Positions 9,945 through 55,410 of a stretch of DNA of 64,000 nucleotides are shown here, one piece after another. How positions within the stretch are numbered: the first letter of the stretch is position 1; each line of letters opens with the position of its first letter. Under the pieces are notes generated by a model. That model was given only the letters and a program-made list of their open reading frames with translations. It was not told where the DNA came from and did no database searches. Source of the stretch: Sphingomonadaceae bacterium. GTDB lineage: Bacteria > Pseudomonadota > Alphaproteobacteria > Sphingomonadales > Sphingomonadaceae. The DNA is taken from contig CANFXW010000005.1 in the NCBI GenBank assembly GCA_947451145.1, forward strand, positions 66,230 to 130,229, given 5' to 3'. Position numbers and translations under genes: made by a program.

Positions 9945-9945
9945 C

Positions 9946-22989: not shown

Positions 22990-23020
22990 GTAAGAATCAT
23001 GCTCCCTCTGGCGGCCACCT

Positions 23021-26162: not shown

Positions 26163-27140
26163 ATGCCGCAACGACATGTTGCCCGCTCAAACCCTGAGCG
26201 AATCAATCTTTACCAGCAAATCACAGACCGCATCATCGCCGATCTCGAAGCCGGGCGCGTCCCATGGGTTCAGCCCTGGGGAACGGCCAATGCCGGCATC
26301 GGCATGCCGCACAATGCTGTCAGTTCCCGTCGATACAGTGGCATCAATGTGCTTACCCTCTGGCATGCCGTCGTCTCCCGAGGGTTTTTGAGCCATGCGT
26401 TCCTGACGTTCCGGCAAGCTGCGGCCTTGGGGGGCTCGGTGCGTCGCGGCGAACGCGGTGTCGGTATCATCTACACCCGCCGCTTTGTGCCCAGCAGCGA
26501 ACGTCGCCGAGCGGATACCGAAGGCACCGCAACCAGTGGCGGGATTCCGTTCCTCAAGCATTTCACGGTGTTCTCGGTCGACCAGTGTGACGGCCTGCCC
26601 GAACATATCTGTCTCCCGCCGCCGCCCATCCCGGATGGCCTGATCCTGCCACACGCCGAGGAACTGATTGCGGCTACGGGCGCCGATTTTCGCATCGGTG
26701 GCCCGTCCGCCTTTTACAGCCCGGCGCATGACTATGTTGCTGTGCCGCGGCCCGACGATTTCCATGAGCCGATCAACTGGCATCGCACGGCTTTTCACGA
26801 ACTGGGCCATTGGACCGGCCATGCCACCCGGCTTGGCCGCGATCAGACTGGCAGCTTCGGCTCCAAGAACTATGGCCGCGAAGAATTGGTCGCGGAAATG
26901 GCCGGAGCCTTCATCTGCGCCGCGCTCGGGATTGTGCCAAGCGTTCGCCACGCTGACTACATCGGCTCGTGGCTCCAGATTATCCGGGAAGACAATCGCG
27001 CCATCCTGCGCGCCGCCAGCGCTGCCTCCAAGGCGGCAGATTATATCCTCGCCTGTCGTGACACCGCATCGACTGATGTTGATGTCGCTGGTGAGGACGA
27101 AGCCGACGGCTTCGAGCTGGAAGGGAGGTTGGCGGCATGA
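26163..27140 (+). CDS. ardC: ArdC-like antirestriction protein (ssDNA-binding N-domain + zincin metallopeptidase-like C-domain)
   Basis: 325 aa. N-terminal ITDRIIADLEAGRVPWVQPW and an HExxH motif in FHELGHWTGH. Confidence 0.8.
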   Translation: MPQRHVARSNPERINLYQQITDRIIADLEAGRVPWVQPWGTANAGIGMPHNAVSSRRYSGINVLTLWHAVVSRGFLSHAFLTFRQAAALGGSVRRGERGVGIIYTRRFVPSSERRRADTEGTATSGGIPFLKHFTVFSVDQCDGLPEHICLPPPPIPDGLILPHAEELIAATGADFRIGGPSAFYSPAHDYVAVPRPDDFHEPINWHRTAFHELGHWTGHATRLGRDQTGSFGSKNYGREELVAEMAGAFICAALGIVPSVRHADYIGSWLQIIREDNRAILRAASAASKAADYILACRDTASTDVDVAGEDEADGFELEGRLAA

Positions 27141-27535
27141 ACCTGCTCACCCCCGAAATTCGCGCGGCCTTGCTCGCGAACATGCACGCGCGCCGCAATG
27201 CGCAGGCACAGGGCAAACGGGAGCCTGATCCCGTTCCCGTTGCCCGGTTCTTCAATCCGCTTGGCGCGGCCACCTGGCTTGCCACCGAACTCGACGAGGA
27301 CGGCATCCTATTCGGCCTTGCCGATCTCGGCCTTGGCTGCCCCGAACTCGGCAGCTTCTCATTGCGGGAATTGCAGTCGCTGCGCCTGCCGTTCGGCCTC
27401 GGGATCGAACGGGATATCCTCTTCGAAACTGCGTTGCCCATATCGGCCTACGTCGCGGCAGCCCGTCAGGCGGGTTCGATCCTGGGCGCTGAAAAGCTGC
27501 TGAGGGAACGCGCCATACCAGAAGGGGATGGCTGA
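27137..27535 (+). CDS. DUF2958-family protein (ICE/plasmid backbone)
   Basis: 132 aa. LLTPEIRAALLAN...ARFFNPLGAATWLATELDEDGILFGLADLGLGCPELGSFSL matches my recollection of DUF2958. ATGA overlap with ardC. Confidence 0.65.
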   Translation: MNLLTPEIRAALLANMHARRNAQAQGKREPDPVPVARFFNPLGAATWLATELDEDGILFGLADLGLGCPELGSFSLRELQSLRLPFGLGIERDILFETALPISAYVAAARQAGSILGAEKLLRERAIPEGDG

Positions 27536-27674
27536 AATCTGTTGGCCTGGCGACCTGCCAGATCGCTGGGTGGCCCGCCTGCGGCGGCCAGAGAGGAAGA
27601 GGAAGGCCAGGGCCTTCGTGACGGGCTTGGAAGCCGAGAGAGTGTCTCGCGGCGGCCCGTCATGGAGACCTACA

Positions 27675-29792
27675 ATGGCCAAACACCCTGCAAAAATCAC
27701 CCTCAGCCCGTCGCGTGACATTCCCTTCGACCATCTGATCCTTTCACAATCCAATGTCCGCCGCGTGAAGGCCGGCGTGTCGATCCCCGAGCTTGCCGAG
27801 GATATCGCGCGCCGGACGTTGCTTCAGAGCCTCAACGTGCGCCCGGTACTTGATGCCGAAGGTCAGGAGACCGGCATCTTCGAAGTTCCGGCCGGTGGCC
27901 GACGCTACCGTGCCCTTGAACATCTGGTGAAACAGAAGCGCCTGGCGCGCACCGCGCCGATTCCCTGCATCGTCAAGGCGGCGGACAATGACGTCTCGGC
28001 GGAAGAAGACAGCTATGCCGAAAACGCGCACCGGGAACAGTTGCATCCGCTCGACCAGTTCCGGGCCATGCAGGCCATGGTCGACAAGGGTAGCGCCGCC
28101 GAAGACATCGCCGCGCATTTCCTGACCACGCCCGCCGTCGTGCGCCAGCGTCTCAAACTGGCGTCGGTCTCGCCCAAACTCCACGACATTTACGCCGAAG
28201 ACGGCATGTCGCTGGACCAGTTGATGGCGTTCACCGTGTCCGAAGACCATGAGCGCCAGGAGCAGGTGTGGGAAATGCTCACCCACAGCTTCAACAAATC
28301 CGCCGCCTACATCCGCCAGCGCCTGACGGAAAACAGCGTCCGGGTTGCCGACAAGCGGGTGCGGTTCGTGTCCGTCGATGCCTATGTCGCGGCTGGCGGC
28401 GGCGTGATGCGCGACCTGTTCGAGGACGATGACGGGGGCTGGCTCACCGATCCCGCACTGCTCGACCGCTTGGTCGACGCGAAACTTGCCGCCGAGGGCA
28501 ACCGCATTGGCACTGAAGGCTGGAAATGGGTGGCGACTGCCGTCGACCTGCCATGGAATGCGACCAACGGACACCGTGAGATCGTTGGCGCAGAATTGCC
28601 CATGACTGAGGACGAGCAGGCAAGGCTCACGGTGCTTCAGGCTGAAATCGAGCAGATCGAGACCGAATGGGCCGACGACCCCAACGTGCCGCAGGACGTC
28701 TATGCGCGGATCGAAGGGCTTGAAACGGAAATCGGCCAGCTGGCCGACCGGCCCATGATTTTTGATCCTGCCGAAATGGCAATCGCCGGTGCCTTTGTGA
28801 CGATCGAGGCGGATGGTTCGCTTTGCATTGAGCGTGGCTATGTCCGAGCCGAAGACGAACCGGTGGCGGAAGTGAGCCGCGAAGACGATGGCTCCGGGGT
28901 CGATCCCGTTTCGGGCGAGCCAATACCTGGCGCAAACCACAACGGGACCGCACCAAGCGCCAGCGGTTCGGCGCCTACCGGAACTGATGCAGAAGATGCC
29001 GACGATGACATCCTCAAGCCGTTGCCCGACCGGCTGGTTGCCGACCTGACCGCCTGGCGCACGCTCGCATTGCAGGATGCCTTTGCCCAAAGCCCCGCCA
29101 CAGCCTTCGCGACGGTGCTGCACGCGCTCGTGCTCGACACCTTCTACAGCTACAGCCGCGAGAGCTGTCTGCAACTGTCGCTCAACCGGGTGTCCTTTGC
29201 CAATCCACCTGCAGGTCTGCGCGACAGTGCTCCCGCGCGGGCCATCGCCGAGCGCATGAAGCGCTGGGAGGATCGACTGCCGGAGTCCGACAAGGAACTC
29301 TGGGACGCGCTTCTGGCCTTCGACGCCGATGAGCAGGCCAGTCTGTTTGCCCATTGCACATCGCTGGCGGTGAACGCGCAGGCCGAGATCGTCCCGAAAT
29401 ACGACAATGGCCGGGTGTCGACGCACAGCGTTGCACGCCGCATCGCTCACAGCCATGTCCTGGCGCATGCTGTTGGTCTTGATGTCGTGGCGGCAGGCTG
29501 GAAGCCCACAGTCGATGGTTATTTCCGCAGCGTGACCAAACCGCGCATTCTTGCCGATGTGACCGAAGCGCGCGGGGAGCAGTTCGCTGGCATGATCGAT
29601 CACCTGAAAAAAGGCGACATGGCCCGCGAGGCGGAACGGCTGCTGGAAGATGCCCACTGGCTTCCAGAGCCGCTGCGGACGCCCGACGCCGACGGTGGTC
29701 ATGGCGCTACGCCTGACGTTGATCGTGAAGGGCTCGAGCTACCCGCGTTCCTTGATGATGACGAGGCGGCTTACGCGATCGCCGCCGAATGA
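27675..29792 (+). CDS. ParB/Srx-domain (ParB-like nuclease/partition) protein
   Basis: Start trimmed to ATG 27675 (MAKHPAKITLSPSRDIPFDHLILSQSNVRRV), preceded by GGAGA. ParB-box-like PAGGRRYRALEHL. 705 aa. Confidence 0.75.
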   Translation: MAKHPAKITLSPSRDIPFDHLILSQSNVRRVKAGVSIPELAEDIARRTLLQSLNVRPVLDAEGQETGIFEVPAGGRRYRALEHLVKQKRLARTAPIPCIVKAADNDVSAEEDSYAENAHREQLHPLDQFRAMQAMVDKGSAAEDIAAHFLTTPAVVRQRLKLASVSPKLHDIYAEDGMSLDQLMAFTVSEDHERQEQVWEMLTHSFNKSAAYIRQRLTENSVRVADKRVRFVSVDAYVAAGGGVMRDLFEDDDGGWLTDPALLDRLVDAKLAAEGNRIGTEGWKWVATAVDLPWNATNGHREIVGAELPMTEDEQARLTVLQAEIEQIETEWADDPNVPQDVYARIEGLETEIGQLADRPMIFDPAEMAIAGAFVTIEADGSLCIERGYVRAEDEPVAEVSREDDGSGVDPVSGEPIPGANHNGTAPSASGSAPTGTDAEDADDDILKPLPDRLVADLTAWRTLALQDAFAQSPATAFATVLHALVLDTFYSYSRESCLQLSLNRVSFANPPAGLRDSAPARAIAERMKRWEDRLPESDKELWDALLAFDADEQASLFAHCTSLAVNAQAEIVPKYDNGRVSTHSVARRIAHSHVLAHAVGLDVVAAGWKPTVDGYFRSVTKPRILADVTEARGEQFAGMIDHLKKGDMAREAERLLEDAHWLPEPLRTPDADGGHGATPDVDREGLELPAFLDDDEAAYAIAAE

Positions 29793-30504: not shown

Positions 30505-30981
30505 ATGTCAGCGCAATACATCTACGACACCGCCCCCTTGGGCAGCCTCATCCACTATTCGAATGGCGCCCCGCGCCCGCCCGAGCGTTTCCGCCGCAAA
30601 CTTGCCGCTTGGGACAACGACAATGGCACCGGTCGGCTCGTTGAACGCTACCCCGGCCAGGTTACCGATAACTACCGTTCGCCGGCGCATTTCATGCTCC
30701 ATCTGGCAACCTACGGCAGTCAGGGCGTCATCGTCATGACCGTGCGCCGCGCCTACAGCGTCGAGAGCCCGCTCAATTTCGAGATCATCGATACGCCAAA
30801 GCCTGGTCAAGTCCGCGTCTTGACCACGTTTCGGGGCAAGGACGAATTGCGCCACCTCGCAGCCGACATGGAATCGGCAGAAGCATGGATGCGCGACAAT
30901 CTCTATTCCGGGATGCGCGCCGAGATTGTGACCGACGCTGATCTGGCCGTTCTGCCCTCTGAACTCAGGAGGGCGGCATGA
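30505..30981 (+). CDS. Hypothetical protein (ICE backbone)
   Basis: 158 aa. AAGGAGA Shine-Dalgarno 8 nt upstream. Its stop overlaps the next start (ATGA). Confidence 0.5.
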   Translation: MSAQYIYDTAPLGSLIHYSNGAPRPPERFRRKLAAWDNDNGTGRLVERYPGQVTDNYRSPAHFMLHLATYGSQGVIVMTVRRAYSVESPLNFEIIDTPKPGQVRVLTTFRGKDELRHLAADMESAEAWMRDNLYSGMRAEIVTDADLAVLPSELRRAA

Positions 30982-31778
30982 ACGACATCATCGTCGAACA
31001 TGGCACGACCAGCGACGGCCTTATGGCCGCACGGGTCGATGGGCTCGCCTATATCGCCATTCCGCTCAAGGAAGGCTTCTCGATCGTGTCCGGCTGGAAG
31101 CTCAACCGGCCGATTGGCGAATGGTCCCGGTCAGATGTTTATTGTGCCGAAGGCGCCGTGGCTGATGAAGTCTCCTTCCGCGCCTATATTGCCGACATCG
31201 CGCTACATGTCCGCCAGCGCAACGCGCTCGGCCGCGTCGATACGATCCTGCGCGTTTCCACGCCTTGGGGTATGTCTCAATCGGCGACCATCTACGCTGA
31301 GGGGATCGTCTTTCATTCCACTGCTGGTCATGGCGGCTTCAAGCTCGACCGGGCACGCAATGCGGGGATGGATCCCGTGTTGCGACTATCTGGCGGCTGG
31401 TATGAAGAAGACGCCGAATGGGCGCTCGTCGCCGCAGGTTACCCGGACCTGTTCACCTACCGCGAACAGGCTACGGCAGACAGGTCGTTGCGAGATTGGT
31501 ATCCTGATGCTTGGGAGGCCCTCCATGGCCGCGAGTTGTCAGCGGCAGAATCTTTCACCCGCGACCGCCAGCAGTTTGCCCGCCGCCACGCAAAGGATTG
31601 GGTGGTCATTTCTGCCGCTCGATCATCCGATCACTCTGGCATGGTTGAGGCGCTGGCCACCGTCGGAGGGGATCGGAATAGCCAAGAAACGCGACGATTT
31701 CTGGTGCGGGTCGGAGAATATGCAGCCGGACGCCATGGATTTGTCATTGTGCCAGCCGTCCACCAAGCCATTTCGTAA
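30978..31778 (+). CDS. Hypothetical protein, possibly DUF7007-like (ICE backbone)
   Basis: 266 aa. STPWGMSQSATIYAEGIVFHSTAGHGGFKLD...GWYEEDAEWALV. Preferred over the overlapping Arg/Ser/Pro-rich frame 31000..31839. Confidence 0.5.
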   Translation: MNDIIVEHGTTSDGLMAARVDGLAYIAIPLKEGFSIVSGWKLNRPIGEWSRSDVYCAEGAVADEVSFRAYIADIALHVRQRNALGRVDTILRVSTPWGMSQSATIYAEGIVFHSTAGHGGFKLDRARNAGMDPVLRLSGGWYEEDAEWALVAAGYPDLFTYREQATADRSLRDWYPDAWEALHGRELSAAESFTRDRQQFARRHAKDWVVISAARSSDHSGMVEALATVGGDRNSQETRRFLVRVGEYAAGRHGFVIVPAVHQAIS

Positions 31779-32052: not shown

Positions 32053-32754
32053 ATGATCGACATCCGCAAGACGCTGGTTGAAGCATTGCCAAAGAATCTC
32101 CTCCTCGACCTAGAGGATCGGTTGCGCGCAGCTGCGTTGCACGCGTTCGATGTTGTCCAGCAGGAGTTGCCGCTCAATCGGAAGCGCAGCCGTGAAGCCG
32201 AAGGGCAGATTCGCTTCCGTCTTCAGGAGCAGGCCTATGAGGAGGTTGTGCGCGAACATGGCGGGGATCTGCTTGTCGATGGCGTGATGGTGGGAACCGA
32301 TCTCAAGGTATTCCAGCCCTTTGCGCGTTTCGCCGGTTCGAAAGCTGGTATTATCCTGGGCTTCGCGGCCATGCCCGAGCCGCGCAAGATCCCGCCGAAG
32401 AATCAATCGCGTGCTGCCGGTGTGACATTGAACGTCAGTCTGCAGCCAAGCCTGCTGGACGATGGCAAGAGCCCCCGGTCCTCAGACATCTTTGCGCTTT
32501 TCCTGACGGCTCGTGACCGTGAGCGCGCCGGACGAATTGAAGAAATTGCGATTGGCGTGATCGGGTCCGACTATAAGGACTTCATCTTCTATGAGTCGCT
32601 CGAGGCTTTTCTCGGTGGCTATGCCGAAGTGCCTGCCACGCCTGACCATGGCGGGAAGGGCGGGGCTGCAGTCAAGCTACGTGCGACCCGCAAGCCGTTT
32701 GTGCCGCCAGAGGTGCGTCCCGACACTGAGGTTGGCGACCGCATCGCAGAATAA
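32053..32754 (+). CDS. Hypothetical protein (233 aa), first gene of cargo block C
   Basis: ORF with a good SD. No motif recognised. Sits directly upstream of the XRE-ImmA/IrrE gene. Confidence 0.5.
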   Translation: MIDIRKTLVEALPKNLLLDLEDRLRAAALHAFDVVQQELPLNRKRSREAEGQIRFRLQEQAYEEVVREHGGDLLVDGVMVGTDLKVFQPFARFAGSKAGIILGFAAMPEPRKIPPKNQSRAAGVTLNVSLQPSLLDDGKSPRSSDIFALFLTARDRERAGRIEEIAIGVIGSDYKDFIFYESLEAFLGGYAEVPATPDHGGKGGAAVKLRATRKPFVPPEVRPDTEVGDRIAE

Positions 32755-32828: not shown

Positions 32829-34043
32829 ATGCGCATTGGCACTCCAGGCTTCGTCCCAGCGCGACTTACCGAAGCGCGTGAGGCGCGGCGAATTGCGACC
32901 AAATCGGCGCTGGCTCGACGGATCGGCGTCAGCCCAACATCTGTCTCGCGTTGGGAAGATGAAGGGTCTGAACAGACGCCCGACTATCCGACGCTCGTTC
33001 GTCTTGCGGGTGAACTGCAGGTTCGCCCTGAATTTTTCCTCCGTCCCACATTCCAAAGCGAGCGCCCAACCTTTTTGCGCTCGCTGGCGAGCACGCTGCA
33101 GCGCGATCTGAATTTCCAAAAGTCACAAATGCATTGGCTTCAGGAAGCAAGTTATGTTGTCAGCCATTACGTCGATTTGCCGGATGTTGATATTCCCGAT
33201 GTGCTCGAAGGGGCGAGCTACACTCAGCTTCGCGACGACGACATCGAGGCGATCGCTTTGCGGCTACGCAATCATTGGAACATGGGCGAAGGGCCATGCG
33301 GCGACATGGTTGCACTCATGGAGCGTGTCGGAATCGTCGTGGCCGCGATTCCGATGAATACGACCAAGCTGGATGGTCTGTGCAGCTGGTCGCCCGTCGA
33401 TGGGCGTCCCCATGTGCTGCTCGCGACAGACAAAATGTCGTTTCCCCGCCGCCAGATGGATGCTGCCCATGAGTTGGCCCATGCGGTTCTGCATCAAGCG
33501 GTCCCAGAAGAAGAGTTCCAGGACAATCTTCGCATGATTGAGCAGCAGGCGTTTCGCCTTGGCAGCGCATTTCTCATGCCCTCTTCCACTTACCCTCATG
33601 AAGTTCGGCATGCATCGCTTGCCATGCTGACCAGCCTCAAGGAGCGGTGGCGGGTTTCGATTAAAGCGCAGATTAAACGGCTTGCCGATCTGGACGTGAT
33701 CCCTGAGGATCACGCGCGTCAACTCTATAAGTTGTATTCGGCGAAAGGCTGGTCGAGAGGCGAGCCGCTTGATCAGCACTGGCCCGTGCCGGCACCAAAG
33801 GCTCTGCACGATAGTCTCAATCTGATCGTCGATAATGCTGTACGCGGCAAGGCTGATCTGATGGCTACCGAGTTCATTATTTCGGAATCCGACGTTGAGC
33901 TTCTTTGCGGTTTGCCTTGCGGCTGGTTCGAACGCGATGGTGCCGAAGTGGTCTCATTGAAGATCCGAGAAAACATGATACCGCCAAGGATCGACGGAGC
34001 GGCTGAGATCATACCCTTTCCAGATCGACGTTCGCCTCGCTGA
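32829..34043 (+). CDS. XRE-family HTH fused to ImmA/IrrE (COG2856) zinc metallopeptidase domain
   Basis: 404 aa. N-terminal HTH LTEAREARRIATKSALARRIGVSPTSVSRWE. HExxH motif AAHELAHAVLH at 33468-33482. Confidence 0.8.
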   Translation: MRIGTPGFVPARLTEAREARRIATKSALARRIGVSPTSVSRWEDEGSEQTPDYPTLVRLAGELQVRPEFFLRPTFQSERPTFLRSLASTLQRDLNFQKSQMHWLQEASYVVSHYVDLPDVDIPDVLEGASYTQLRDDDIEAIALRLRNHWNMGEGPCGDMVALMERVGIVVAAIPMNTTKLDGLCSWSPVDGRPHVLLATDKMSFPRRQMDAAHELAHAVLHQAVPEEEFQDNLRMIEQQAFRLGSAFLMPSSTYPHEVRHASLAMLTSLKERWRVSIKAQIKRLADLDVIPEDHARQLYKLYSAKGWSRGEPLDQHWPVPAPKALHDSLNLIVDNAVRGKADLMATEFIISESDVELLCGLPCGWFERDGAEVVSLKIRENMIPPRIDGAAEIIPFPDRRSPR

Positions 34044-34271: not shown

Positions 34272-35186
34272 GTGAACACAGTTGAAGTGAAGGGCCTGCC
34301 AGTGAGTCTTACTATGCCAACAAAATGGCGTTTCGGATCGCCGGGCGAACTGAACCAGCAGACCGTAAATGCATTCAACTCGCTCATCCACACAATCGCC
34401 ACCCAAGCCGATTCCACATGGGAAATCCTCGAGCTCTTCAAGGCGAAGTTCAACGGCGGTGCCAGCTGGAGCTCCAGCGAAAGCTGGGCGGTGGGTGACC
34501 TCCACAATGCCATGAACGGCGCGGCTGACAATGCCGCGACCTTCATCGCCGCCTTTTGGGACGGCTGCGAACAGGTCCATCGCGAGCATTCCACCATCGG
34601 CCTGCCAGACGTCGACATCATCAACCAGATTCTGTTCGAGCATGACGTCCCCTACGAGGTGCGGCCGCCCGAGCTCTTACCCCGCAATCCTCAGACCCCT
34701 ATCCCGGTCCAGACACCGCAGCGATCCATTGGCGAGCAGGCCGTTGCATTGGTCCACGCATCGCTCGATCAAGCCGACCGTCTGCTCCTCGAGCAACGCC
34801 CGCGGCCTGCGGTCCAAGAGATTCTCTGGCTGCTTGAGACGGTCGCCACCGCCTTCCAGGGCCTAGATACCGGGACAGGCACCATCGAGGGCAAATACTT
34901 TAACGAGATCATTCGCAATCTGCGCAACCACCACCGCGGCGGCGCGCTTGCCGAGGCCTTAGGTTGGATGACCAAGATGCACGGCTTTCTCTCATCACCC
35001 ACGGGTGGGGGCGTGCGTCACGGCACCCAAATGGCGGTCGACGTCTCACCGACGCTCAAGGAGGCGCATCTCTACTGCAACCTCACCCGCAGCTATATCA
35101 ACTATCTGCTCGCCGAGGCGGCGGACGCTTTGCCCGTTCAGCCCGTGAGCAGCTCGCCGTTCGGCGCGCCTGCCTGGAGGAGGTGA
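34272..35186 (+). CDS. Hypothetical protein with candidate C-terminal HEPN (Abi_C/AbiJ-like) domain
   Basis: 304 aa from GTG 34272 (ATG alternative at 34314). R-x4-H motif IIRNLRNHH at 34914-34931, preceded by a helical AVQEILWLLETVATAF segment. A downstream GGGVRHG is also present. Confidence 0.45.
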   Translation: MNTVEVKGLPVSLTMPTKWRFGSPGELNQQTVNAFNSLIHTIATQADSTWEILELFKAKFNGGASWSSSESWAVGDLHNAMNGAADNAATFIAAFWDGCEQVHREHSTIGLPDVDIINQILFEHDVPYEVRPPELLPRNPQTPIPVQTPQRSIGEQAVALVHASLDQADRLLLEQRPRPAVQEILWLLETVATAFQGLDTGTGTIEGKYFNEIIRNLRNHHRGGALAEALGWMTKMHGFLSSPTGGGVRHGTQMAVDVSPTLKEAHLYCNLTRSYINYLLAEAADALPVQPVSSSPFGAPAWRR

Positions 35187-35229
35187 CCTTGCATGTTGCC
35201 CTGCATGGCCTCTTCGCAGGGGCTGGGAT

Positions 35230-36369
35230 GTGATTTCGCTTGATGACTATGCGTCGGCGGTCCGGCGATATGCTGAGGCAGTCACAGGGCATGGCGATCA
35301 GCTCGAGCTGTACATCGACGGCCTTGTCGGCGATCCCGATGCTGAGAATTGCGTCTCGCTGCGAGCGATGGTCAGCACGCAGGAGGAAATGACCTTACGC
35401 CGGGGCTATCTTGAGATCGGCTATTTCCAACGAGCCGCGGCGGATCGCCGGCTTGCTTGGTGGCTCTTCTATTTCGACATCGCACACGAATTCGAAAACC
35501 TGTCGCTCGAGCGAAGTTGCGAGCTTTACTCTAAGGTTCATCCCCTCTTTCAGGGCACCCCATCCCTGTTTGCGAAGATCCGGCGCACGATCCCGGCAAA
35601 TGGCAAAAGCTTGGGGGTGCCCGATTTGGAGCTGATCGATGAGAAAGCAATCAAGCCCATCGAGGAAAGCGAGCTCGTTGCACTCAACCCTGGCTATGGC
35701 CAACTCGTCGCTTCCCTCCACCGAACGATCCCGGCTTTGGCGCGCCAGCTTTATCCGGACGCGCCGCGCTTCGTACGTCTTGATCCGCATTTTTGGTCCG
35801 CAAACCAGCCGTTCATGCGCCTAGAAGAGGTCGCCATCGCACCGGCCGATCCGACCTGGATGGCACAGCTCTCGCTGCCTCCGCGCACGGACACGTTCGC
35901 AGCTTACCTTCTCGAAGATTGCGATCCTAAAGCCAACATGGCGCAGTATCGTGATTATCACGTTCGTGGCATCCGCAAGCTGGAGGTGGTCGCGACCCGG
36001 CGCCGCGAGGACTACCTCTCGATGATGATCGAAGAGCTACCCCGCGACGACGACCCCAATGGACTGATGGTAGGGCGCTGCATTCATCTCGACACCCATG
36101 CGCGCTCCGGTACATCGAAGGGCGACGCGCGTCTTGCCCATCTCGATCTTGCCATCAACGTTTATCGTGGCGTCGACCGCGCGGCGCGCATAGCCAACAC
36201 GCTTCAGCACGGCAAAGCACAAGATGCGACATACCGGACGCACCTCTATCGCATCGAGGATGTCCCCTTTCCGGCGCTGTTTGTATTTGCCGCGCTCTTC
36301 CTGAAATCAAGGACCCTTCTAGGCGAATGGCTTGACGATCTGAACCTGCCGCGACCGCCAATGGTCTGA
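35230..36369 (+). CDS. Hypothetical protein (379 aa)
   Basis: ORF from GTG 35230 (start uncertain). Balanced composition. No catalytic or NTP-binding motif recognised. Confidence 0.45.
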   Translation: MISLDDYASAVRRYAEAVTGHGDQLELYIDGLVGDPDAENCVSLRAMVSTQEEMTLRRGYLEIGYFQRAAADRRLAWWLFYFDIAHEFENLSLERSCELYSKVHPLFQGTPSLFAKIRRTIPANGKSLGVPDLELIDEKAIKPIEESELVALNPGYGQLVASLHRTIPALARQLYPDAPRFVRLDPHFWSANQPFMRLEEVAIAPADPTWMAQLSLPPRTDTFAAYLLEDCDPKANMAQYRDYHVRGIRKLEVVATRRREDYLSMMIEELPRDDDPNGLMVGRCIHLDTHARSGTSKGDARLAHLDLAINVYRGVDRAARIANTLQHGKAQDATYRTHLYRIEDVPFPALFVFAALFLKSRTLLGEWLDDLNLPRPPMV

Positions 36370-36448
36370 TCATCAGCGAAAAAGTTTAGTGTGATTAAGA
36401 ACAATGCCGCCTGTTTGAGAGCTGGTTTGAGAAGGAGATCGACGGAAC

Positions 36449-37426
36449 ATGAGAGAAAGCCTGCGAAATCGTGTTCGTTTCCTAGACCAGAAGGTCATTG
36501 ACGCAAATGATCTTGTGCCGAATCAGCCAGGGGGTATTCAAAATCTGATTTACAGAACCCAGGATCCTGCACTGAAGTGGATCGAGAACGCCACTTCGCG
36601 CATCGGCGACTGGCGCGCGTCCGAGCGAAGCGTTTTTATGCGTTGGGCGATTACAATTAACGCGCTGCATGTAGCACGAGACCGTTACCGAGATTCGCCA
36701 GACATACTCCTTACCATCGACACCCTCCGCACTGCGAACGGACGGACTGAGCGTGTGCACATGGCAGGCTGGAGTGGTGAGGAGGCGGCGGGTAACCACG
36801 AGGCCACCATTCCAATGATGGCCGCCTACGCCGTTCAGGACATGTATGGAATCGTTGAGGAAATCGTCCTCGAGCTCTACGAAGTCTTCGTGCGCGGTAA
36901 TCCGCTTTTCCTCATGAAAGGGGACGATTACAAGCCACTACGCGCCGCGTTCCGTGCGATGGGCGATGGCGAAGCAGAGCGTGTTGCGTTCGAGGCGATG
37001 TGGGAGGATCGAATTGCGGGTTGGCGCCGTAATCGGACCTTCGATGGTCTTCACAAGGTCTTCGCAAGCTTCTGGGCCTCTGCTGGGCTAAATCGTCCCA
37101 GCAGCTATAGCCTGACGGACGTCGCCGATTGGCAGCGTGTCATGGAGACCATTGGAGAGGTCCGGCATCTCGTCACTCATGGCGAAGACAAGGTTTCGAA
37201 GCGTCTCGGTGACCTCTGCGCCGCCCAACCGAACCTTGGAATGACATTCAAAGAGGGGGAACCGCTAGAAGTGAAGCTGATGGATCTCTGGATCGTCGAG
37301 CATTTCATCGATCAGCTGCTGAACGCGATCAACATCAGTCTGCTCGAGAAGGCTGTTGGACCGCTGCCCCCGCCCGGCGGCGCTAAGCCCGATCAGGCCG
37401 GAACACCTGCGGCGACAGAGATGTAA
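36449..37426 (+). CDS. HEPN-domain protein (candidate RNase)
   Basis: 325 aa. GAAGGAGA SD upstream. R-x4-H motif METIGEVRHLVTHGEDKV (R239..H244 = 37163-37180) in a helical C-terminal half. Its stop TAA is immediately followed by the next ATG. Confidence 0.55.
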   Translation: MRESLRNRVRFLDQKVIDANDLVPNQPGGIQNLIYRTQDPALKWIENATSRIGDWRASERSVFMRWAITINALHVARDRYRDSPDILLTIDTLRTANGRTERVHMAGWSGEEAAGNHEATIPMMAAYAVQDMYGIVEEIVLELYEVFVRGNPLFLMKGDDYKPLRAAFRAMGDGEAERVAFEAMWEDRIAGWRRNRTFDGLHKVFASFWASAGLNRPSSYSLTDVADWQRVMETIGEVRHLVTHGEDKVSKRLGDLCAAQPNLGMTFKEGEPLEVKLMDLWIVEHFIDQLLNAINISLLEKAVGPLPPPGGAKPDQAGTPAATEM

Positions 37427-38875
37427 ATGGCGGTGACTGACCACAGCTTCGACCTGCTCGAGCGGCGACATGGCTGGAAAGTCGAAGAAGTCCTCGTCGT
37501 CACGCCCTACGTCGAGAAGGAATTCTTCGAACGTCTAGCCAAGGGGCTTCATCCTCAGCGTTTGAGCGTCATTATCGACGACGGTTGTCGCCTCGACGAC
37601 ATCGACATGGTCACTAAGGCCGTGTCCAAGGCAGGTAGCAAGACCGTTGCTGGATTGAGGTGCGTCCTCGGATCAGCGCCGGGACTGATGCATCTTAAGC
37701 TCTTCTACATCGTGTGGCGGACCCCCGGAAAGCGCACAGCGCGCACGCTGATTTTCGGCTCCGCCAACGCGACCAGACAGGGATTCGGCGGATCAGTAAA
37801 CGCCGAACTCATTGCCAGTTGCAGCCTTACCATGGGGCGGCACGCCGACGTCATAAGCTGGTGCAATGCCGCCATCGCCGCCGCGCGGTCGACGGAACAC
37901 ATAAAGCTCGCCGGCGCGAGGGATGTGGAGCTTGGCAAGGGCATACGGCTCAGACTTCCCGCTCTGACCATTGGACGCAAAAAATCGGCGCTCGCGAGCT
38001 TCGATCTGTGGGTTCAGCGTGGATGGCTGCTTTCGGAATATCGGCCCGACCCCGGCTTCCTGCGCGTTCCGATTCATCTCAGCAAGGCGCTTAGTCAGAC
38101 CGAACAGGAGCGTATCGCAGCAACCAGCGGCTTCGCCGTGCCAGCCAAGAAGCGCCTGACCTTTTCCTACGCATTGCCGGAGGGCCAGGTCGGCAACGGC
38201 ACGGACGATGATGACGCAGACGAAAGCGACGAGGGAGGTAATTGGCGACGGAAATTTTTCGTCTGGACCCAACTCGGCGAGTGGTGCTCTGATGCCTGTC
38301 ACCGCGCCGAACATCACCACTTCCGACGAAAGGGCTACCAGCAACGCGAAGAAAGGCTGCGCTGTCTCGAGACGCTGCGGTTGCCGTCTGTCCGACAAGA
38401 AGAGCGCGATCGCTTCCTTGCTTCGCTTACTAAGCTCTGGAACGACTTCGGTGAAGAGGCGAGCGAACTCCTTCGCGGCGGCGATGCGCTGGACGAGCAA
38501 TACTACGCGCAGCTGTTCGACCAGCGTGTGGAGCGCGATCTCGCGCTCGTCGTCGACGGGGAGTTCCAGGATCGCTATCTCACTGGCTACGAATTGAGCC
38601 AAGTCCCCCGCTTTAGGCCCGACGTCCGGGGTTGGCGCGATTTCCTCGAAAGTCTTGCGCGGCAAATCTGCTTAGACGGCGCCCGCAAGCAGAGCCAGTC
38701 GCGACTTCCTCGCGCCATTCTAGAGGCTTTGAAGCTGACGGGCTTAGACGACGCAGGCTTTGATGATCCTGAAATGCTCCTCGAAAAGCTGAAACTTGTT
38801 TTCGAGAAGGGGGAGTGCGGCGACGCTATTATGGCACAGGCAGCGACGACCATCAGCCGGTATCACCTAGACTGA
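37427..38875 (+). CDS. PLD-superfamily (single divergent HKD motif) nuclease-like protein with ~340-aa unknown C-terminal region
   Basis: 482 aa. LVVTPYVE...GLMHLKLFYIVW...LIFGSANATRQGF (H89/K91...G111-S-x-N114 = 37691-37768). The canonical Asp of HxK(x)4D is absent. Acidic stretch DDDDADESDEGG. Confidence 0.55.
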   Translation: MAVTDHSFDLLERRHGWKVEEVLVVTPYVEKEFFERLAKGLHPQRLSVIIDDGCRLDDIDMVTKAVSKAGSKTVAGLRCVLGSAPGLMHLKLFYIVWRTPGKRTARTLIFGSANATRQGFGGSVNAELIASCSLTMGRHADVISWCNAAIAAARSTEHIKLAGARDVELGKGIRLRLPALTIGRKKSALASFDLWVQRGWLLSEYRPDPGFLRVPIHLSKALSQTEQERIAATSGFAVPAKKRLTFSYALPEGQVGNGTDDDDADESDEGGNWRRKFFVWTQLGEWCSDACHRAEHHHFRRKGYQQREERLRCLETLRLPSVRQEERDRFLASLTKLWNDFGEEASELLRGGDALDEQYYAQLFDQRVERDLALVVDGEFQDRYLTGYELSQVPRFRPDVRGWRDFLESLARQICLDGARKQSQSRLPRAILEALKLTGLDDAGFDDPEMLLEKLKLVFEKGECGDAIMAQAATTISRYHLD

Positions 38876-39049
38876 GCCTACACAGAAGTTATTCATTCGT
38901 GAACCTCACACTGGGGCTCGAAAGCGCGCGATGCGCTTGCGAGCGCTGAGTTTGGAGGCAGAGCCTTGCCGGGAGCGGGCGAACCGCCCGGGTTTAGAGA
39001 GAGTGTCCGGGCGTGATCCGCCCTTTCTGCTCTCCCGGAGATCCCACCA

Positions 39050-42000
39050 ATGGCCCATACTCTAACGGACGCAGCGCTTGGCGCTGCGCCGCGCGCATCG
39101 AATTGCTCATTTGATGATCGTTCGCGTGCGCTGCTGACCGCAGCAACCTCGCTCATAGCCCTGCTCGAAACCGGGCAATGTGTTGAATCCGCCTGTTTGC
39201 GGGATGCAATGACGACAGCCTTTGGCGGCACCGATGCTGAAGGCGCATGGGATTGGAAGAGCGCCTACGATGCCTGTGAGGTTGCACAGATCCTGTTTCT
39301 GCGCCGCTTTGGCCCGGCAATCTTGTCTCGCAGTGGCTCCAGATCTCGCTCCCTTGCGCTGATTGAGCGGGTATCGGCTCTCATACCGACCCACACCCGG
39401 CGCTCTGAAACCAGCCAGGCCTTGCAACAATATTCGACGCCAGCGGGTCTATCGTTCGTGGCCGTTGTCGCTGCTTCGATTGGCGTTGGCGAAACTGTGC
39501 TCGAACCTTCTGCTGGCACAGGCATGTTGGCGATTCAGGCCGAACTGGCCGGTGCACAGCTCGTGCTGAATGAACTCGCTGAAGGCCGGGCAGCGCTGCT
39601 GTCGCACTTGTTCTCGGGCGTGGCTGTCAGCAGACATGACGCCGCGTCGATTGATGATCGTTTGCCCATTTCGGCACGCCCGAGCGTCATCCTGATGAAC
39701 CCGCCATTTTCGGCCGTCGCGCATGTTGAGCGGACGATGAAGGACGCCGCGCTTCGCCACCTCGCTTCCGCGCTGGCCCGGCTCGAGAATGGGGGCCGGC
39801 TGGTGGTCATTACCGGCGCTGGCTGTGCTCCTGATGCTCCAGCATGGCGCGATGCTTTCATCCGGTTGCAGGGGACCGGACGTGTGGTCTTCACCGCCGC
39901 CATCGACGGCAAGGTCTATCGCAAGCACGGCACGACGATCGACACGCGATTGACGGTGATCGACAAGTTGCCCGCCTCCGATCCCACGACTTTCGTTCCG
40001 AGTGCAGGGACTGCTTCTGATACCGCGACCTTGCTCAAATGGGTCGAAGCGCAGGTGCCGCCGCGCGGACCGATCGCCCCAATGCCCGGTGCAGGACTGC
40101 ATTGCGCTTCTTCGCCGTCGCCCGCGAGCCGCGCGGTTGCTCGGACTGCGCCGATCAATCCCATGGTCGATGCCGATGCGCCTGAACTCACCTATTCGAC
40201 TGCTGTCTGGGCTCCGCCTGAGGGGCAACTCGGGGACAGCATCTACGAACGATATGGACTTCAATCGGTCGTCATTCCCGGCGCATTGCCACACCCGACG
40301 CCGCTGGTTCAATCCGCGTCGATGGCCTCGGTCGCGCCGCCGAAACCCGCCTATTTCCCGCACTTGCCCGAGCACTTGTTGGCTAATGGCGTGTTGTCCG
40401 ACGCGCAGCTGGAATCCGTAATCTACGCTGGCGAGGCACATTCCGGGCATCTGGCAGGGTCCTGGACCGTTGACGAGACATGGGATCTCGTCTCGGCGGC
40501 GGCTGAAGTAAGCGATGCTGCCGTCCGCTTTCGCCGCGGCTGGTTTCTGGGTGACGGCACGGGCGCAGGCAAAGGGCGTCAGGTCGCAGGCATCATTCTC
40601 GACAACTGGCTCAAAGGCCGCCGCCGTTCGCTCTGGGTTTCGGTATCGGACCGCCTGCTTGAGGATGCTCAGCGCGACTGGTCGGCTTTGGGGCAGGAAC
40701 GACTGCTGGTGACACCCTTGTCGCGCTTCCGTCAGGGCACGCCCATCAAGCTGGCGGAAGGCATCTTGTTCACGACCTATGCGACCCTGCGTTCGCAGGA
40801 GCGGGGCGGTAAAGCGAGCCGGGTCCAGCAGATCGTCGAATGGCTTGGCCGTGACTTTGACGGTGTCATCTTCTTTGACGAGGCGCACGCCATGGCCAAT
40901 GCCGCAGGCGGCAAGGGCGCGCGCGGCGATGTTTCAGCCTCGCAGCAGGGACGGGCGGGCCTGCGGCTGCAACATGCTCTGCCCAATGCCCGCATCGTCT
41001 ATGTCTCGGCCACCGGTGCCACGACGGTGCAGAACCTCGCCTACGCCCAGCGGCTCGGCCTGTGGGGCGGCGAAGACTTTCCTTTCGCCTCACGCGCCGA
41101 CTTCGTGGCCGCGATTGAGGATGGCGGCGTCGCAGCTATGGAAGTGCTGGCCCGCGATCTGAAGGCGCTCGGCCTCTACGCTGCCCGTTCCTTGTCATTC
41201 GATGGCGTCGAATATGACCTGCTCGAGCACCAGCTGACCCCTGAGCAGGTGCGGATTTACGATTCCTATGCCGGAGCATTTCAGGTCATTCACGCCCATC
41301 TCGATGCAGCGCTCGAAGCATCGGGCGTCACCAGTGCATCCCATGGGACCTTGAACGCACAGGCCCGGTCGGCAGCGCGATCAGCTTTCGAAAGCGCCAA
41401 GCAGCGTTTCTTCAATCACCTGATCACCGCAATGCAGACGCCAAGCACCATTCAGGCGATGCAGCGCGATCTTGAGGCCGGTCACGCCTGTGTCGTGCAG
41501 ATCGTATCGACGGGCGAAGCGTTGCAGGAGCGCCGTCTTGCCGAAATCCCGACCGACGAATGGGATGACGTTTCCGTGGACATCACGCCACGTGAATATG
41601 TGCTCGACTATCTCGCGCACAGTTTTCCGGTGCAGCTCTATGAGCCCTTCACCGACAGCGAGGGCAATCTCGCCTCGCGGCCTGCTTTTGATGCCGACGG
41701 CAATCCCATCCTCAACCGTGAAGCCTGCCGAGCCCGTGATGCCATGCTCGAGCGGCTTGCCGCTTTGCCGCCTGTGCCCGGTGCGCTTGACCAGATTGTC
41801 CAGCATTTCGGGAGCGATGCGGTTGCCGAGGTGACCGGACGTTCCCGTCGCATAGTGCCCCGCGCCAGCAGCGATGGTTCGGTGCGCTTCGCCGTCGAAA
41901 ACCGGCCCGCATCAGCTAATATCGCTGAAACCCATGCGTTCATGGATGACAAGAAGCACATCCTTGTCTTCTCCGAGGCTGGCGGCACGGGGCGATCCTA

Positions 42001-43396
42001 TCATGCCGACCTAGGCGTGAAGAACCAGCGCCGCCGCGTCCACTACCTGCTCGAAGCAGGCTGGAAGGCCGACACCGCCATCCAGGGCTTTGGCCGCACC
42101 AACCGCACGAACCAGAAGCAGCCACCGCTGTTTCGCCCGGTATCGACCGACGTGAAGGCGCAGAAGCGCTTCATCTCGACGATCGCCCGAAGGCTCGACA
42201 GTCTCGGAGCGATCACGCGCGGCCAGCGGCAAACCGGCGGCCAGAACATGTTCAGCGCCAGCGACAATCTGGAATCCTACTATGCCCGCGATGCCCTACG
42301 CCAGCTTTACCAATTGCTGGTGCGCGGCAAGATCGATGGCTGTTCGCTAGGGCAATTCGAAACGGCCACCGGCCTGTCTCTGCTCGACAATGACGGCGGG
42401 CTCAAGGACGAGCTTCCACCCATCACGACCTTCCTCAACCGGATGCTGGCGCTCACCATTTCCATGCAGAACATCCTGTTCGAGGCCTTCGAGGGTCTGC
42501 TGACGGCCCGGGTCGAAGGCGCAATCGCCAGCGGCACCTATGAAATGGGCCTCGAAACCCTGCGCGCCGAGAGCTTCTCGGTCTCCGACCGCAAGACCAT
42601 CTACACCCATCCCGGCACCGGAGCTGTGACCCACCTCCTGACCATCGAACGCAAAGACCGGATCGAGCCGGTTGTGCTCGAGAGGGCGCTGGCCATGGCG
42701 ATGGATCGCGATGCCGAACTGGTGATCAACACTCGCTCCGGGCGCGCGGCAGTCAAATTGCGCGCGCGCAGTCTGATCGACGATGATGGCGGCATTCACC
42801 CACGCATCCGCCTCGTCCGGCCTTTGGAGGCGACCAATATCCTCGCGGAGGCGTTTGCGACCAGTCATTGGGAACCGGTGGACCGTGAGCGGTTCAGCGA
42901 AGTCTGGCAGGCCGAACTTGCCGACTTGCCGGAGTTCGAAACCTCGACCCTACACATGGTTTCAGGCCTGCTGCTGCCGATCTGGCGGCGGATCCCCAAC
43001 GAATCGACCCGCGTCTACCGCCTGCAAACCGATGCTGGCGAGCGCGTCATCGGCCGCAAGGTTTCGCCCGCTTGGGTCGCCACGGTGATTGAGCAGGACA
43101 CGGCGTCCGTCGTGCCTGCCGATGCTTGGGCGGTGCTGTGCGCCGGAGATGCCAAACTGCATCTGGCCGAAGATCAGACGCTCGCTCGCGTCCGCGCCAT
43201 GAATGACTGGCGGATCGAACTGACCGGCTTCAACGATCTTGGCATCGAGCGATTGAAGGCAATGGGCTTGATCTCCGAGATCGTCTCGTGGAAACTCAAG
43301 CTCTACATACCGACAGGGGCTGTCGGGGTTGATGTGCTCGCCAAGCTGCTGGACCGGTTTCCGATCCAGCGGATCGCGGCACGCAAAGCCGCCTGA
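39050..43396 (+). CDS. Strawberry-notch-family protein: N-terminal N6-adenine methyltransferase-like domain + P-loop/DEAH helicase
   Basis: 1448 aa. SAM motif VLEPSAGTGMLAI and motif IV NPPF at 39698-39709. FLGDGTGAGKGRQ P-loop and IFFDEAHAM. Typical backbone gene of this ICE type. Confidence 0.8.
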   Translation: MAHTLTDAALGAAPRASNCSFDDRSRALLTAATSLIALLETGQCVESACLRDAMTTAFGGTDAEGAWDWKSAYDACEVAQILFLRRFGPAILSRSGSRSRSLALIERVSALIPTHTRRSETSQALQQYSTPAGLSFVAVVAASIGVGETVLEPSAGTGMLAIQAELAGAQLVLNELAEGRAALLSHLFSGVAVSRHDAASIDDRLPISARPSVILMNPPFSAVAHVERTMKDAALRHLASALARLENGGRLVVITGAGCAPDAPAWRDAFIRLQGTGRVVFTAAIDGKVYRKHGTTIDTRLTVIDKLPASDPTTFVPSAGTASDTATLLKWVEAQVPPRGPIAPMPGAGLHCASSPSPASRAVARTAPINPMVDADAPELTYSTAVWAPPEGQLGDSIYERYGLQSVVIPGALPHPTPLVQSASMASVAPPKPAYFPHLPEHLLANGVLSDAQLESVIYAGEAHSGHLAGSWTVDETWDLVSAAAEVSDAAVRFRRGWFLGDGTGAGKGRQVAGIILDNWLKGRRRSLWVSVSDRLLEDAQRDWSALGQERLLVTPLSRFRQGTPIKLAEGILFTTYATLRSQERGGKASRVQQIVEWLGRDFDGVIFFDEAHAMANAAGGKGARGDVSASQQGRAGLRLQHALPNARIVYVSATGATTVQNLAYAQRLGLWGGEDFPFASRADFVAAIEDGGVAAMEVLARDLKALGLYAARSLSFDGVEYDLLEHQLTPEQVRIYDSYAGAFQVIHAHLDAALEASGVTSASHGTLNAQARSAARSAFESAKQRFFNHLITAMQTPSTIQAMQRDLEAGHACVVQIVSTGEALQERRLAEIPTDEWDDVSVDITPREYVLDYLAHSFPVQLYEPFTDSEGNLASRPAFDADGNPILNREACRARDAMLERLAALPPVPGALDQIVQHFGSDAVAEVTGRSRRIVPRASSDGSVRFAVENRPASANIAETHAFMDDKKHILVFSEAGGTGRSYHADLGVKNQRRRVHYLLEAGWKADTAIQGFGRTNRTNQKQPPLFRPVSTDVKAQKRFISTIARRLDSLGAITRGQRQTGGQNMFSASDNLESYYARDALRQLYQLLVRGKIDGCSLGQFETATGLSLLDNDGGLKDELPPITTFLNRMLALTISMQNILFEAFEGLLTARVEGAIASGTYEMGLETLRAESFSVSDRKTIYTHPGTGAVTHLLTIERKDRIEPVVLERALAMAMDRDAELVINTRSGRAAVKLRARSLIDDDGGIHPRIRLVRPLEATNILAEAFATSHWEPVDRERFSEVWQAELADLPEFETSTLHMVSGLLLPIWRRIPNESTRVYRLQTDAGERVIGRKVSPAWVATVIEQDTASVVPADAWAVLCAGDAKLHLAEDQTLARVRAMNDWRIELTGFNDLGIERLKAMGLISEIVSWKLKLYIPTGAVGVDVLAKLLDRFPIQRIAARKAA

Positions 43397-43407: not shown

Positions 43408-44451
43408 ATGGACAGTCCCGCCACCGATATCGCCCGCCGCCTTGCCGCCTCAGCCGAGGCGGTCTGCCGCCGTTACCTGTCCAATGGTCGCCGAGAAGGC
43501 TGCTACTGGCTGGTCGGCGATGTTCACAATTCGCCGGGTCGCAGTCTCTACGTCCGATTGTCAGCAACAGCCGAAAGCCGGGGAGGCGCGGGCAAATGGA
43601 CAGACGCGCAAAGCGGCGACCATGGTGATCTTCTCGACATTATCGCCGCGAGTTGCTCCCATCGGACCATGCGCGAGACGCTCGACGAAGCCCGCCAATT
43701 CCTGAGCCTGCCGCCGCCTGATGAGTCCAAACTCCGAAACCCGACCATATGCAAAGCGCCGACCGGCACACCAGAAGCGGCCCGGCGCCTATGGGCCGCC
43801 TCAAAGCCGATCACGAACAGCATCGCAGCGCGTTATCTTGGTCGCCGGTCGATCATCGATCTTTCCGGCATTGATCAACTGCGTTTCCATCCGCGCTGTT
43901 ACTATCGGCCTGCTGAAGATGATGTCCCTGGTGTGCGGGAGGCATGGCCCGCAATGATCGCTGCAGTCACCGACAATGAGGGCACTATCACGGGGGTTCA
44001 TCGCACTTGGCTTGATCCACAATCCTACGACAAAGCGGCTGTCGCATATCCACGACGCGCCATGGGGCACTTGCTCGGCTCGGGCGTCCGGTTCGGCAAA
44101 GCGGACGGTGTCATGGTTGCCGGTGAAGGCCTCGAAACAATGCTGTCGCTGCGACAGGTGATGCCATCCATGGCGATGATCGCAGGGCTATCGGCCGCCC
44201 ACCTCGCTGCCATCCAGTTCCCTGCTGCGCTGCACTGCCTCTATGTCGCGCGCGATGATGATCCAGCCGGGGCAACGGCATTGTCGACCTTGACCGAGCG
44301 ATGCGAACCGTTGGGCATTGCGGTCATACCGCTTGAACCCCGGCTCGACGATTTCAACAGCGACCTTACAACCTATGGCCACGAGCAGTTGGCAGCGGCC
44401 ATTCGGGTGCAGCTCAGCGCCGCCGATGCCGTGCGGTTTCTCAAAGAGTGA
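43408..44451 (+). CDS. Toprim-domain protein (primase-like, ICE backbone)
   Basis: 347 aa. Toprim Glu in MVAGEGLETMLSL and DxD in YVARDDDPAG. Confidence 0.7.
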   Translation: MDSPATDIARRLAASAEAVCRRYLSNGRREGCYWLVGDVHNSPGRSLYVRLSATAESRGGAGKWTDAQSGDHGDLLDIIAASCSHRTMRETLDEARQFLSLPPPDESKLRNPTICKAPTGTPEAARRLWAASKPITNSIAARYLGRRSIIDLSGIDQLRFHPRCYYRPAEDDVPGVREAWPAMIAAVTDNEGTITGVHRTWLDPQSYDKAAVAYPRRAMGHLLGSGVRFGKADGVMVAGEGLETMLSLRQVMPSMAMIAGLSAAHLAAIQFPAALHCLYVARDDDPAGATALSTLTERCEPLGIAVIPLEPRLDDFNSDLTTYGHEQLAAAIRVQLSAADAVRFLKE

Positions 44452-55231: not shown

Positions 55232-55247
55232 ATTTGACCCTCCATTT

Positions 55248-55292
55248 GGAGACAAAGATTTCAGGGGGGTGCTTTGTCTCCACTTTGTCTCC
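55248..55292. repeat. Three copies of a 10-bp motif upstream of int (one inverted, two tandem direct)
   Basis: GGAGACAAAG (55248-55257), then CTTTGTCTCC at 55272-55281 and 55283-55292, read directly. TGGGAAA(A)GT is also duplicated at 55381-55400. Candidate arm-type or regulator binding sites. Confidence 0.5.
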
Positions 55293-55410
55293 AGATTTAA
55301 GCGTTTCGAGGGTATTATGGGCGGAGGCAATCGTAAACAGAAACATCATAAATATATGATGTAGCGTAGATAATCGTACTTGGGAAAGTTTGGGAAAAGT
55401 GGCCGAAATA

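Follow-up and report, generated by a model that had tools for sequence, protein, structure and literature searches.

The A-B Gene Pair

The stretch of DNA analyzed here, 64,000 nucleotides of contig CANFXW010000005.1 from a Sphingomonadaceae bacterium (referred to as the window), is an integrative and conjugative element (ICE) whose cargo region contains two abutting genes, A and B, together with other defense genes. The TAA stop codon of gene A (37424-37426) is followed without a gap by the ATG of gene B at 37427. The open reading frames (ORFs) and their stop-to-start junction are exactly as described in the initial annotation of this DNA, which had proposed the pair as a two-nuclease defense module. 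The features of the pair are as follows.

36432-36437, forward strand: Shine-Dalgarno-like AAGGAG, 11 nucleotides 5' of the ATG of gene A, from direct reading of the sequence
36449-37426, forward strand: gene A, an ORF of 325 codons for an all-α protein that is probably a HEPN-like RNase, from an unnamed family
37427-38875, forward strand: gene B, an ORF of 482 codons for a protein whose N-terminal part is a single-HKD PLD domain, followed by a β-rich middle and a helical C-terminal region
39009-39033, forward strand: terminator-like hairpin with a T-rich tail, 134 nucleotides past the stop codon of gene B, a tentative call on a weak basis

A scan of the region for promoters and terminators gave site counts at the level of shuffled sequence and is uninformative.

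A and B are real, conserved genes under purifying selection, and their products have confident predicted folds. Homologues of A fall into 43 clusters and those of B into 71-73, and the A family comprises 134 representatives at 50% identity. The ratio of nonsynonymous to synonymous substitution rates (dN/dS) is 0.08-0.33 for A and 0.09-0.22 for B. The AlphaFold (AF2) model of protein A has a predicted local distance difference test score (pLDDT) of 88 and a predicted template modeling score (pTM) of 0.81, and that of protein B a pLDDT of 86 and a pTM of 0.72. As previously noted from the lack of a P-loop, neither protein contains a Walker A motif.

Distribution of A and B

The A-B operon has a single origin, within one small clade, where it has been broken repeatedly. 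Loci retrieved in this analysis are labeled with L-numbers (L001 etc.). A B-centred scan of one genome per species gave 13 loci, from Sphingobium, Sphingomonas, Azorhizobium, Methylobacterium, a Microvirga plasmid, and metagenome-assembled genomes of Hyphomicrobiales. Gene A is absent from all 13, including those whose B shares 74% and 71% identity with the B of the window. Among the 28 loci of an A-centred metagenome scan, B follows A only in L014, which is the same element (99%), and in L015/16.

Within the close clade, a census combining context look-ups with a sensitive search for gene relics found the intact pair in the window and in L042-44, where A is 77% and B 71% identical to the window copies and the two ORFs overlap by 14 nucleotides. 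In L051/52, which are two independent assemblies, A is frameshifted and B is intact; in L049/50, a 37-residue relic of A lies directly 5' of an intact B; and in L046, a 68-residue relic of B lies directly 3' of an intact A. In L015/16, B ends at residue 214, and the rest of the gene is replaced by a convergent imuB-dnaE2 cassette. This error-prone polymerase cassette occupies positions 1530-6514 of L016 on the reverse strand, with the same arrangement in L015, and the shortened, 263-residue B allele (P0247) is present on three contigs from three sources (JGI, Logan, and ENA). B occurs without A in L001, L006, and L047/48, and A occurs without B in L045. At L045, the reverse strand of 7381-9819 encodes an 812-residue protein with no Pfam match, convergent to the solo A and starting 1 nucleotide past its stop codon.

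Outside the close clade, every A at 57% identity or below and every B at 54% or below is solo. In total, approximately 23 distinct A loci lack B and approximately 15 distinct B loci lack A. Neighbor-joining trees place the origin of the A-B operon at a single point, with solo B genes nested within the paired clade. The solo B sisters L001 and L006 have a dN/dS of 0.20 at an unsaturated dS of 0.36, so that B stays constrained without A. At the DNA level, homology to the window does not extend beyond the gene borders, and the flanks therefore differ everywhere; clustering of neighboring genes revealed no conserved partner for A.

These observations bear on two explanations that bind the genes together. 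The first, that A and B form a mutually dependent toxin-antitoxin pair, draws on the appearance of the locus, which has two small co-directional neighbors with nuclease-like motifs beside a Rosmer toxin-antitoxin system. Neither A nor B has an antitoxin-like DNA-binding domain, and each gene is intact and conserved in many genomes that lack the other. Because each persists in this way, a toxin-antitoxin relationship is ruled out and an obligate two-part system is argued against. We rejected the toxin-antitoxin explanation, which the solo distribution effectively refutes and which we regard as highly improbable.

The second explanation is that A and B cooperate as a true two-nuclease (RNase plus DNase) defense system in this clade, the solo copies being degenerate or partnered otherwise. 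The abutment in the window and the overlap in L042 suggest translational coupling, and the pair is co-inherited down to 60% (B) and 73% (A) identity. Precedents for combining the two domain types also exist in the HEPN-PLD fusion SAV_2148 and in CoCoNuT systems, where HEPN and PLD domains are interchangeable. Set against these points are the approximately 23 A loci without B and 15 B loci without A, the loss, frameshift, or shortening of one partner in most lineages of the clade while the other ORF stays intact, and the purifying selection on solo B. A cooperating pair is therefore unlikely in our estimate. The initial annotation had itself tied its module to the two genes being conserved as neighbors, and this conservation fails outside one small clade and is repeatedly broken inside it.

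Protein A: A Probable HEPN-like RNase

The predicted model of protein A, with secondary structure assigned by DSSP, is all-α except for one β-hairpin. Three features stand out.

36641-36661, forward strand: RWAITIN, residues 65-71, the most conserved stretch of A, in a long N-terminal helix (residues 40-82 in the model)
36857-36859, forward strand: E137, an invariant acidic residue in helix 110-150 and a candidate second HEPN active-site residue
37163-37180, forward strand: R239-H-L-V-T-H244, an R[N/H]x3H motif with which helix 225-243 ends on its C-terminal side (DSSP), followed by a loop

A lone R-x4-H motif is found in 45% of shuffled versions of protein A, and A itself holds a second, unconserved copy. 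The motif alone is thus meaningless, and its weight comes from the conservation of R239 and H244. R239, H244, and G245 are invariant in 29 A relatives. In a wider set of 50 full-length members, with identities down to 16%, the sole invariant residues are W66, E137, and R239, and H244 is kept in 46 of the 50. E137 is invariant in both sets (29/29 and 50/50). Residue 240 is Asn in 38, His in eight, and Asp in one of the 50, such that a polar residue follows the Arg in 47. Hallmarks of HEPN proteins are a conserved Rx4-6H motif and, according to a survey (PMC3710099), a polar residue (N, D, or H) right after the Arg and an acidic residue conserved within an upstream helix. Judged by its sequence and its predicted secondary structure, protein A carries the first two, and E137 would fit the third. 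It departs from the frequent Ex3[KR] pattern of HEPN proteins in that no Lys or Arg is found at position +4 from E137.

Searches against known families returned little. The best match to HEPN_RiboL-PSP has an E value of 0.0095 and 16 bits against a cut-off of 28.4, and it is found in 6 of 29 A members, at the motif region. The RTasHEPN model is matched by 3 of 29 members with a best E value of 0.016, also below threshold. A whole-chain Foldseek search of A against PDB (the Protein Data Bank) and BFVD gave nothing below an E value of 0.02 and no HEPN structure. When the A alignment was compared by hhalign with a TIGR02391 protein and with Abi_C (HEPN clan members taken from the fetched loci), only the RN..H segment was aligned, with a probability below 2%. 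A profile search of A against PDB sequences found no match, and an exhaustive profile search returned a closed family with no annotated distant relatives.

Protein A shares several features with the HEPN abortive-infection families (Ribo L-PSP-HEPN, AbiD/AbiF, AbiJ/Abi_C, and ApeA): the R[N/H]x3H motif at a predicted helix end, the invariant upstream Glu, a size of approximately 300 residues, a stand-alone gene, and a location in defense islands. It differs from them in having its own invariant W66/RWAITIN helix and β-hairpin and in having no PADLOC match to ApeA or Abi models. The initial annotation had read the motif as a HEPN RNase signature. The conservation and placement of the motif fit this assignment, whereas every profile match is sub-threshold and the Foldseek search came back empty; from the sequence features, we consider A to be probably of the HEPN type.

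Protein B: A Divergent Single-HKD PLD Domain with a Novel C-terminal Part

Protein B begins with a PLD-like domain and continues into regions of a different character.

37478-37891, forward strand: PLD-like domain, approximately residues 18-155, matched by PLDc_2, ZacB, and Foldseek
37691-37768, forward strand: divergent HKD motif, H89-x-K91, a 19-residue spacer, and G111-S-A-N114, with no Asp at the canonical position
38198-38236, forward strand: acidic, variable, disordered loop, residues 258-270, with pLDDT below 50 and variable alignment columns
38606-38617, forward strand: invariant P394-R-F-R397 in the C-terminal helical region

H89, K91, G111, S112, and N114 are invariant in 36 of 36 B relatives, as are the downstream residues N125 and E127. 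The position of the Asp in the HxK(x)4D motif is occupied by V96 in the window protein and by V, E, R, L, I, or K in its relatives; PLD members of the Tdp1 type likewise lack the HKD Asp. The spacer between the Lys and the Gly-Ser is 19 residues long in 32 of the 36 relatives.

The support for a divergent single-HKD PLD domain comes from both sequence and structure comparisons. Residues 21-130 of the window protein match PLDc_2 with an E value of 6.6e-4 and 20 bits, which is below the curated cut-off of 27. The same model is matched by 35 of the 36 relatives (best E value, 5.5e-6), and three carry a precomputed PF13091 match. The PLD region of the PADLOC ZacB model is matched by all 36, with a best E value of 2.7e-10. 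In a Foldseek search of the PDB, the top 18 matches all belong to the PLD superfamily (PLD3, Streptomyces PLD, and FAM83), and Tdp1 is somewhat lower in the ranking; the probability reaches 0.97 over approximately 150 aligned columns, with a best E value of only 0.058. A second profile search with B gained just one marginal PLD protein.

The roughly 330 residues that follow the PLD domain have no match in Pfam, among PDB sequences, or among PDB folds. The acidic DDDDADESDEGG patch lies inside the disordered loop, residues 258-270. In these respects the initial reading of B holds: it had described a PLD-like core, which the matches of the relatives to PLDc_2 and ZacB and the top Foldseek matches bear out; a missing Asp and a long spacer; and a motif-free tail with an acidic patch.

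Nuc and BfiI are single-HKD PLD nucleases, and B resembles them in having one H-x-K...G-S-x-N motif per chain, a downstream conserved Glu, and a PLD-like order of secondary structure elements. Unlike these enzymes, B lacks the HKD Asp and contains a 19-residue hairpin between the Lys and the Gly-Ser as well as approximately 330 additional, unmatched residues.

Comparison with Known Systems

No named family for A or B is found in Pfam, NCBIfam, PADLOC 2.0, or PHROGs, in line with the original remark that the pair fits no named defense system. The best sequence match to the PLD domain of B is ZacB of the Azaca system, with residues 18-132 of B aligned to model positions 226-334, such that only approximately 110 of the 586 model positions are matched. 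DNA cleavage by Azaca requires ZacA (DUF6361) and the superfamily 2 (SF2) helicase ZacC, and all three proteins are needed. Neither ZacA nor ZacC is found by PADLOC near B in the window, nor is either present near B at any related locus, and no helicase adjoins the window copy of B. Membership of B in Azaca was rejected because ZacA and ZacC are absent. Similar to B, Mokosh, Azaca, and DISARM DrmC represent PLD-type effectors in defense islands, but these come with NTPases, which for the PLD genes of Mokosh and DISARM-type systems are helicases, whereas A and B have no P-loop and no adjacent helicase.

HEPN and PLD domains have been seen together before. SAV_2148 is a HEPN-PLD fusion in which the HEPN domain is listed as inactive (Anantharaman et al. 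2013), and CoCoNuT systems use the two as interchangeable effector domains. Neither precedent resembles the A-B pair. In SAV_2148, both domain types are present in one polypeptide; here, each has a gene of its own, the catalytic motif is preserved in A, and the association is facultative.

Neighborhoods of A and B in Other Genomes

Nearly all A and B loci with usable flanks hold known defense genes; one exception is the B locus L056, which has a housekeeping setting. The solo A of L046 lies in a densely packed defense island (2305-13607) with HerA-like and SIR2 genes, an RmrA-like pair, and a gene for a 1178-residue protein with TIR and KAP NTPase domains. Elsewhere, A is found beside a type II CBASS on Ensifer plasmid pD, beside DUF4433 and macro-domain genes (DarT/DarG-like) on a Methylobacterium plasmid, beside a large SIR2 protein at another locus, and, on an ICE of Qipengyuania, beside a C5 methylase. 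The A gene of L060 is flanked by a DNA methylase gene on one side and by genes for SSB, TraG, and TrwC on the other. B is found beside a dnd cluster and a BrxC/D-like cluster; beside GmrSD, SLFN/AlbA, Vsr, and Dcm; beside SIR2 and Abi_C; and, on a plasmid-like contig, beside AbiE, a NYN-domain gene, and DndB/DUF4007 genes resembling a phosphorothioation (Ssp/Dnd-type) cluster. Neither gene was found in GenBank phages. Relatives of A with 34-43% identity occur in four IMG/VR contigs classed as viral (L071-L074), and B has none there. For each gene taken singly, the neighborhoods provide strong guilt by association for a defense role.

Sacsin-like Giant Proteins near B

A recurring feature in the vicinity of B is a gene for a giant Sacsin-like GHKL ATPase that also carries a NOV_C (DUF3883) domain. 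Such giants adjoin B in convergent orientation in L001, L042, and L051, with a relic in L049. On the Microvirga plasmid (L012/L068), a giant of a different subtype adjoins B in the same direction, and in L005 a giant adjoins B divergently. In L015, the giant is 1.4 kb from A-B. The genes are located as follows.

Window, 45988-51447, forward strand: candidate giant of 1819 residues, 7 kb downstream of B
L001, 11482-15573: giant
L005, 8164-9924: giant
L012, 11628-16472: giant
L015, 3319-6570: giant
L042, 9150-13373: giant
L051, 4032-8258: giant

Giants are present at eight of approximately 23 distinct B loci and at none of approximately 23 A-only loci, and they fall into three subtypes that share no more than 28% identity. 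A single inherited arrangement accounts for four of the eight cases, and 15 B loci have no giant. The association may reflect a functional link, or both may be cargo of a shared hotspot.

One explanation takes the giant, in the window the product of 45988-51447, to be the true partner of B in a nuclease-NTPase system, combining a Sacsin-like GHKL ATPase with a NOV_C nuclease-like region and leaving A as an add-on. The skewed frequency across three subtypes favors it, as does the typical need of defense PLD nucleases for NTPases; the GHKL-type giant, present at a minority of the loci, is the only recurring ATPase neighbor of B. Against it, no giant is seen at 15 B loci with good flanks, orientation and distance vary, four of the eight cases go back to one inherited arrangement, and in the window two ICE backbone genes separate B from the giant. 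We find this explanation unlikely. A broader version, in which B, A, and the giant (45988-51447) would form a loosely linked, undescribed nuclease-NTPase defense system, with a GHKL ATPase rather than a P-loop helicase controlling the PLD DNase and the RNase, appears improbable.

Setting of the Pair in the Window

Gene A and gene B lie in an accessory insertion of an ICE that carries defense cargo, as had been proposed: backbone genes, a Rosmer system, a helicase-methylase cluster, and a dip in GC content, from 63% to 55-60% over 31.5-39 kb, all agree with this setting. The corresponding features are listed below.

6772-9228: VirB4/TrbE, ICE backbone
16520-25897, reverse strand: cluster of an SNF2 helicase (958 residues), an N6/N4 DNA methylase (1075 residues), and an unannotated 1115-residue protein
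26163-27140: ArdC, ICE backbone
30978-31778: DUF7007 protein, ICE backbone
32053-32754, forward strand: RmrT (Rosmer), E value 7e-99
32829-34043, forward strand: RmrA (Rosmer), helix-turn-helix plus M78 peptidase, E value 1e-205
39050-43396: Strawberry-notch-type methylase-helicase, ICE backbone
43408-44451: Toprim protein, ICE backbone
53951-55330: integrase, ICE backbone

The Rosmer system just upstream of A-B is complete. L046 and L068 contain similar RmrA/ImmA-like pairs, the former in the vicinity of A and the latter in that of B. The cluster at 16520-25897 looks like a BREX/DISARM-like or other helicase-methylase defense system. A 754-residue ORF at 27528-29792 (forward strand), beside ArdC, has no Pfam match.

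Between the Rosmer genes and gene A are two more orphans on the forward strand, 34272-35186 and 35230-36369, which have no family matches. Relatives of the former are found on 47 alphaproteobacterial and Burkholderia plasmids, most of them conjugative; one, on an Agrobacterium vitis plasmid, lies in a defense island with an ABC-three-component system, TIGR02391, and TrlF. The latter has distant relatives on Bacillus plasmids, and the two genes are not neighbors elsewhere. A link between 34272-36369 and A-B was rejected, and the orphans are regarded as unrelated cassettes: all are together only in the near-identical L014, and at other loci either orphan is found in the absence of the other or of A and B.

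The setting also raises an explanation in which A, B, or both serve the mobile element, through anti-defense or the exclusion of rival plasmids and ICEs. Leading regions of conjugative elements collect anti-defense genes, and in the window the region lies between ArdC and the methylase-helicase and Toprim backbone genes. The placement of A in L060 and the four IMG/VR contigs with A relatives point in the same direction. Against this, the neighbors of A and B are mostly bona fide defense systems, found also on chromosomal islands, and one locus has a housekeeping context; neither gene is carried by GenBank phages, and RNase- and nuclease-type sites are more typical of effectors. A service to the element is an improbable account of these genes.

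Discussion

On balance, we lean towards A and B being two autonomous, single-gene candidate defense cassettes that came together a single time, in a cargo hotspot of an ICE, and that are being shuffled apart at present. We infer RNase and DNase activities, dimerization, and a defense phenotype for the two proteins as follows. Their adjacency and co-transcription would go back to one event in a single lineage of ICE cargo from alphaproteobacteria. Protein A would most likely be a metal-independent, abortive-infection RNase of the HEPN type. In analogy to what other HEPN proteins do, it may act as a dimer, with the site formed by E137, R239, and H244 cutting RNA once infection or invasion is sensed. 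Protein B would most likely be a PLD-family phosphodiesterase or nuclease. As in Nuc and BfiI, two copies could pair into one H-K-N active site, with the C-terminal part of approximately 330 residues possibly responsible for recognizing targets or for control. On its own, each gene would be protective for the host or the element, and stacking them would add two layers.

Several points weigh against two autonomous cassettes. Two diverged copies of the pair, that of the window and that of L042 (77% and 71% identity), have preserved a stop-start junction that abuts or overlaps, an argument that the genes are truly co-expressed, and possibly cooperate, in this clade. Known defense PLD nucleases usually need an NTPase partner, and giants recur near B; B may therefore not be fully autonomous. 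The HEPN assignment of A comes without any significant profile or structure match, the defense role of both genes is a matter of guilt by association, and many loci come from short contigs.

Orphan nuclease-like genes are common in defense islands, and the feature that made this locus stand out, the pairing, fails. A tidy operon in a defense hotspot can thus be a recent, decaying juxtaposition rather than a system, which is a caution for pipelines that name new systems from adjacency in a single genome. If confirmed, the findings here would add two rare, unannotated families to the single-gene immunity candidates. These families are so far mostly alphaproteobacterial, with approximately 70 clusters (B) and 130 representatives (A) among billions of sequences. 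If the favored reading is true, protein A would represent a new HEPN-like family distinguished by an invariant N-terminal helix of its own, and protein B would be a PLD nuclease whose C-terminal architecture is new and which apparently works without the NTPase partner of known PLD defense nucleases.

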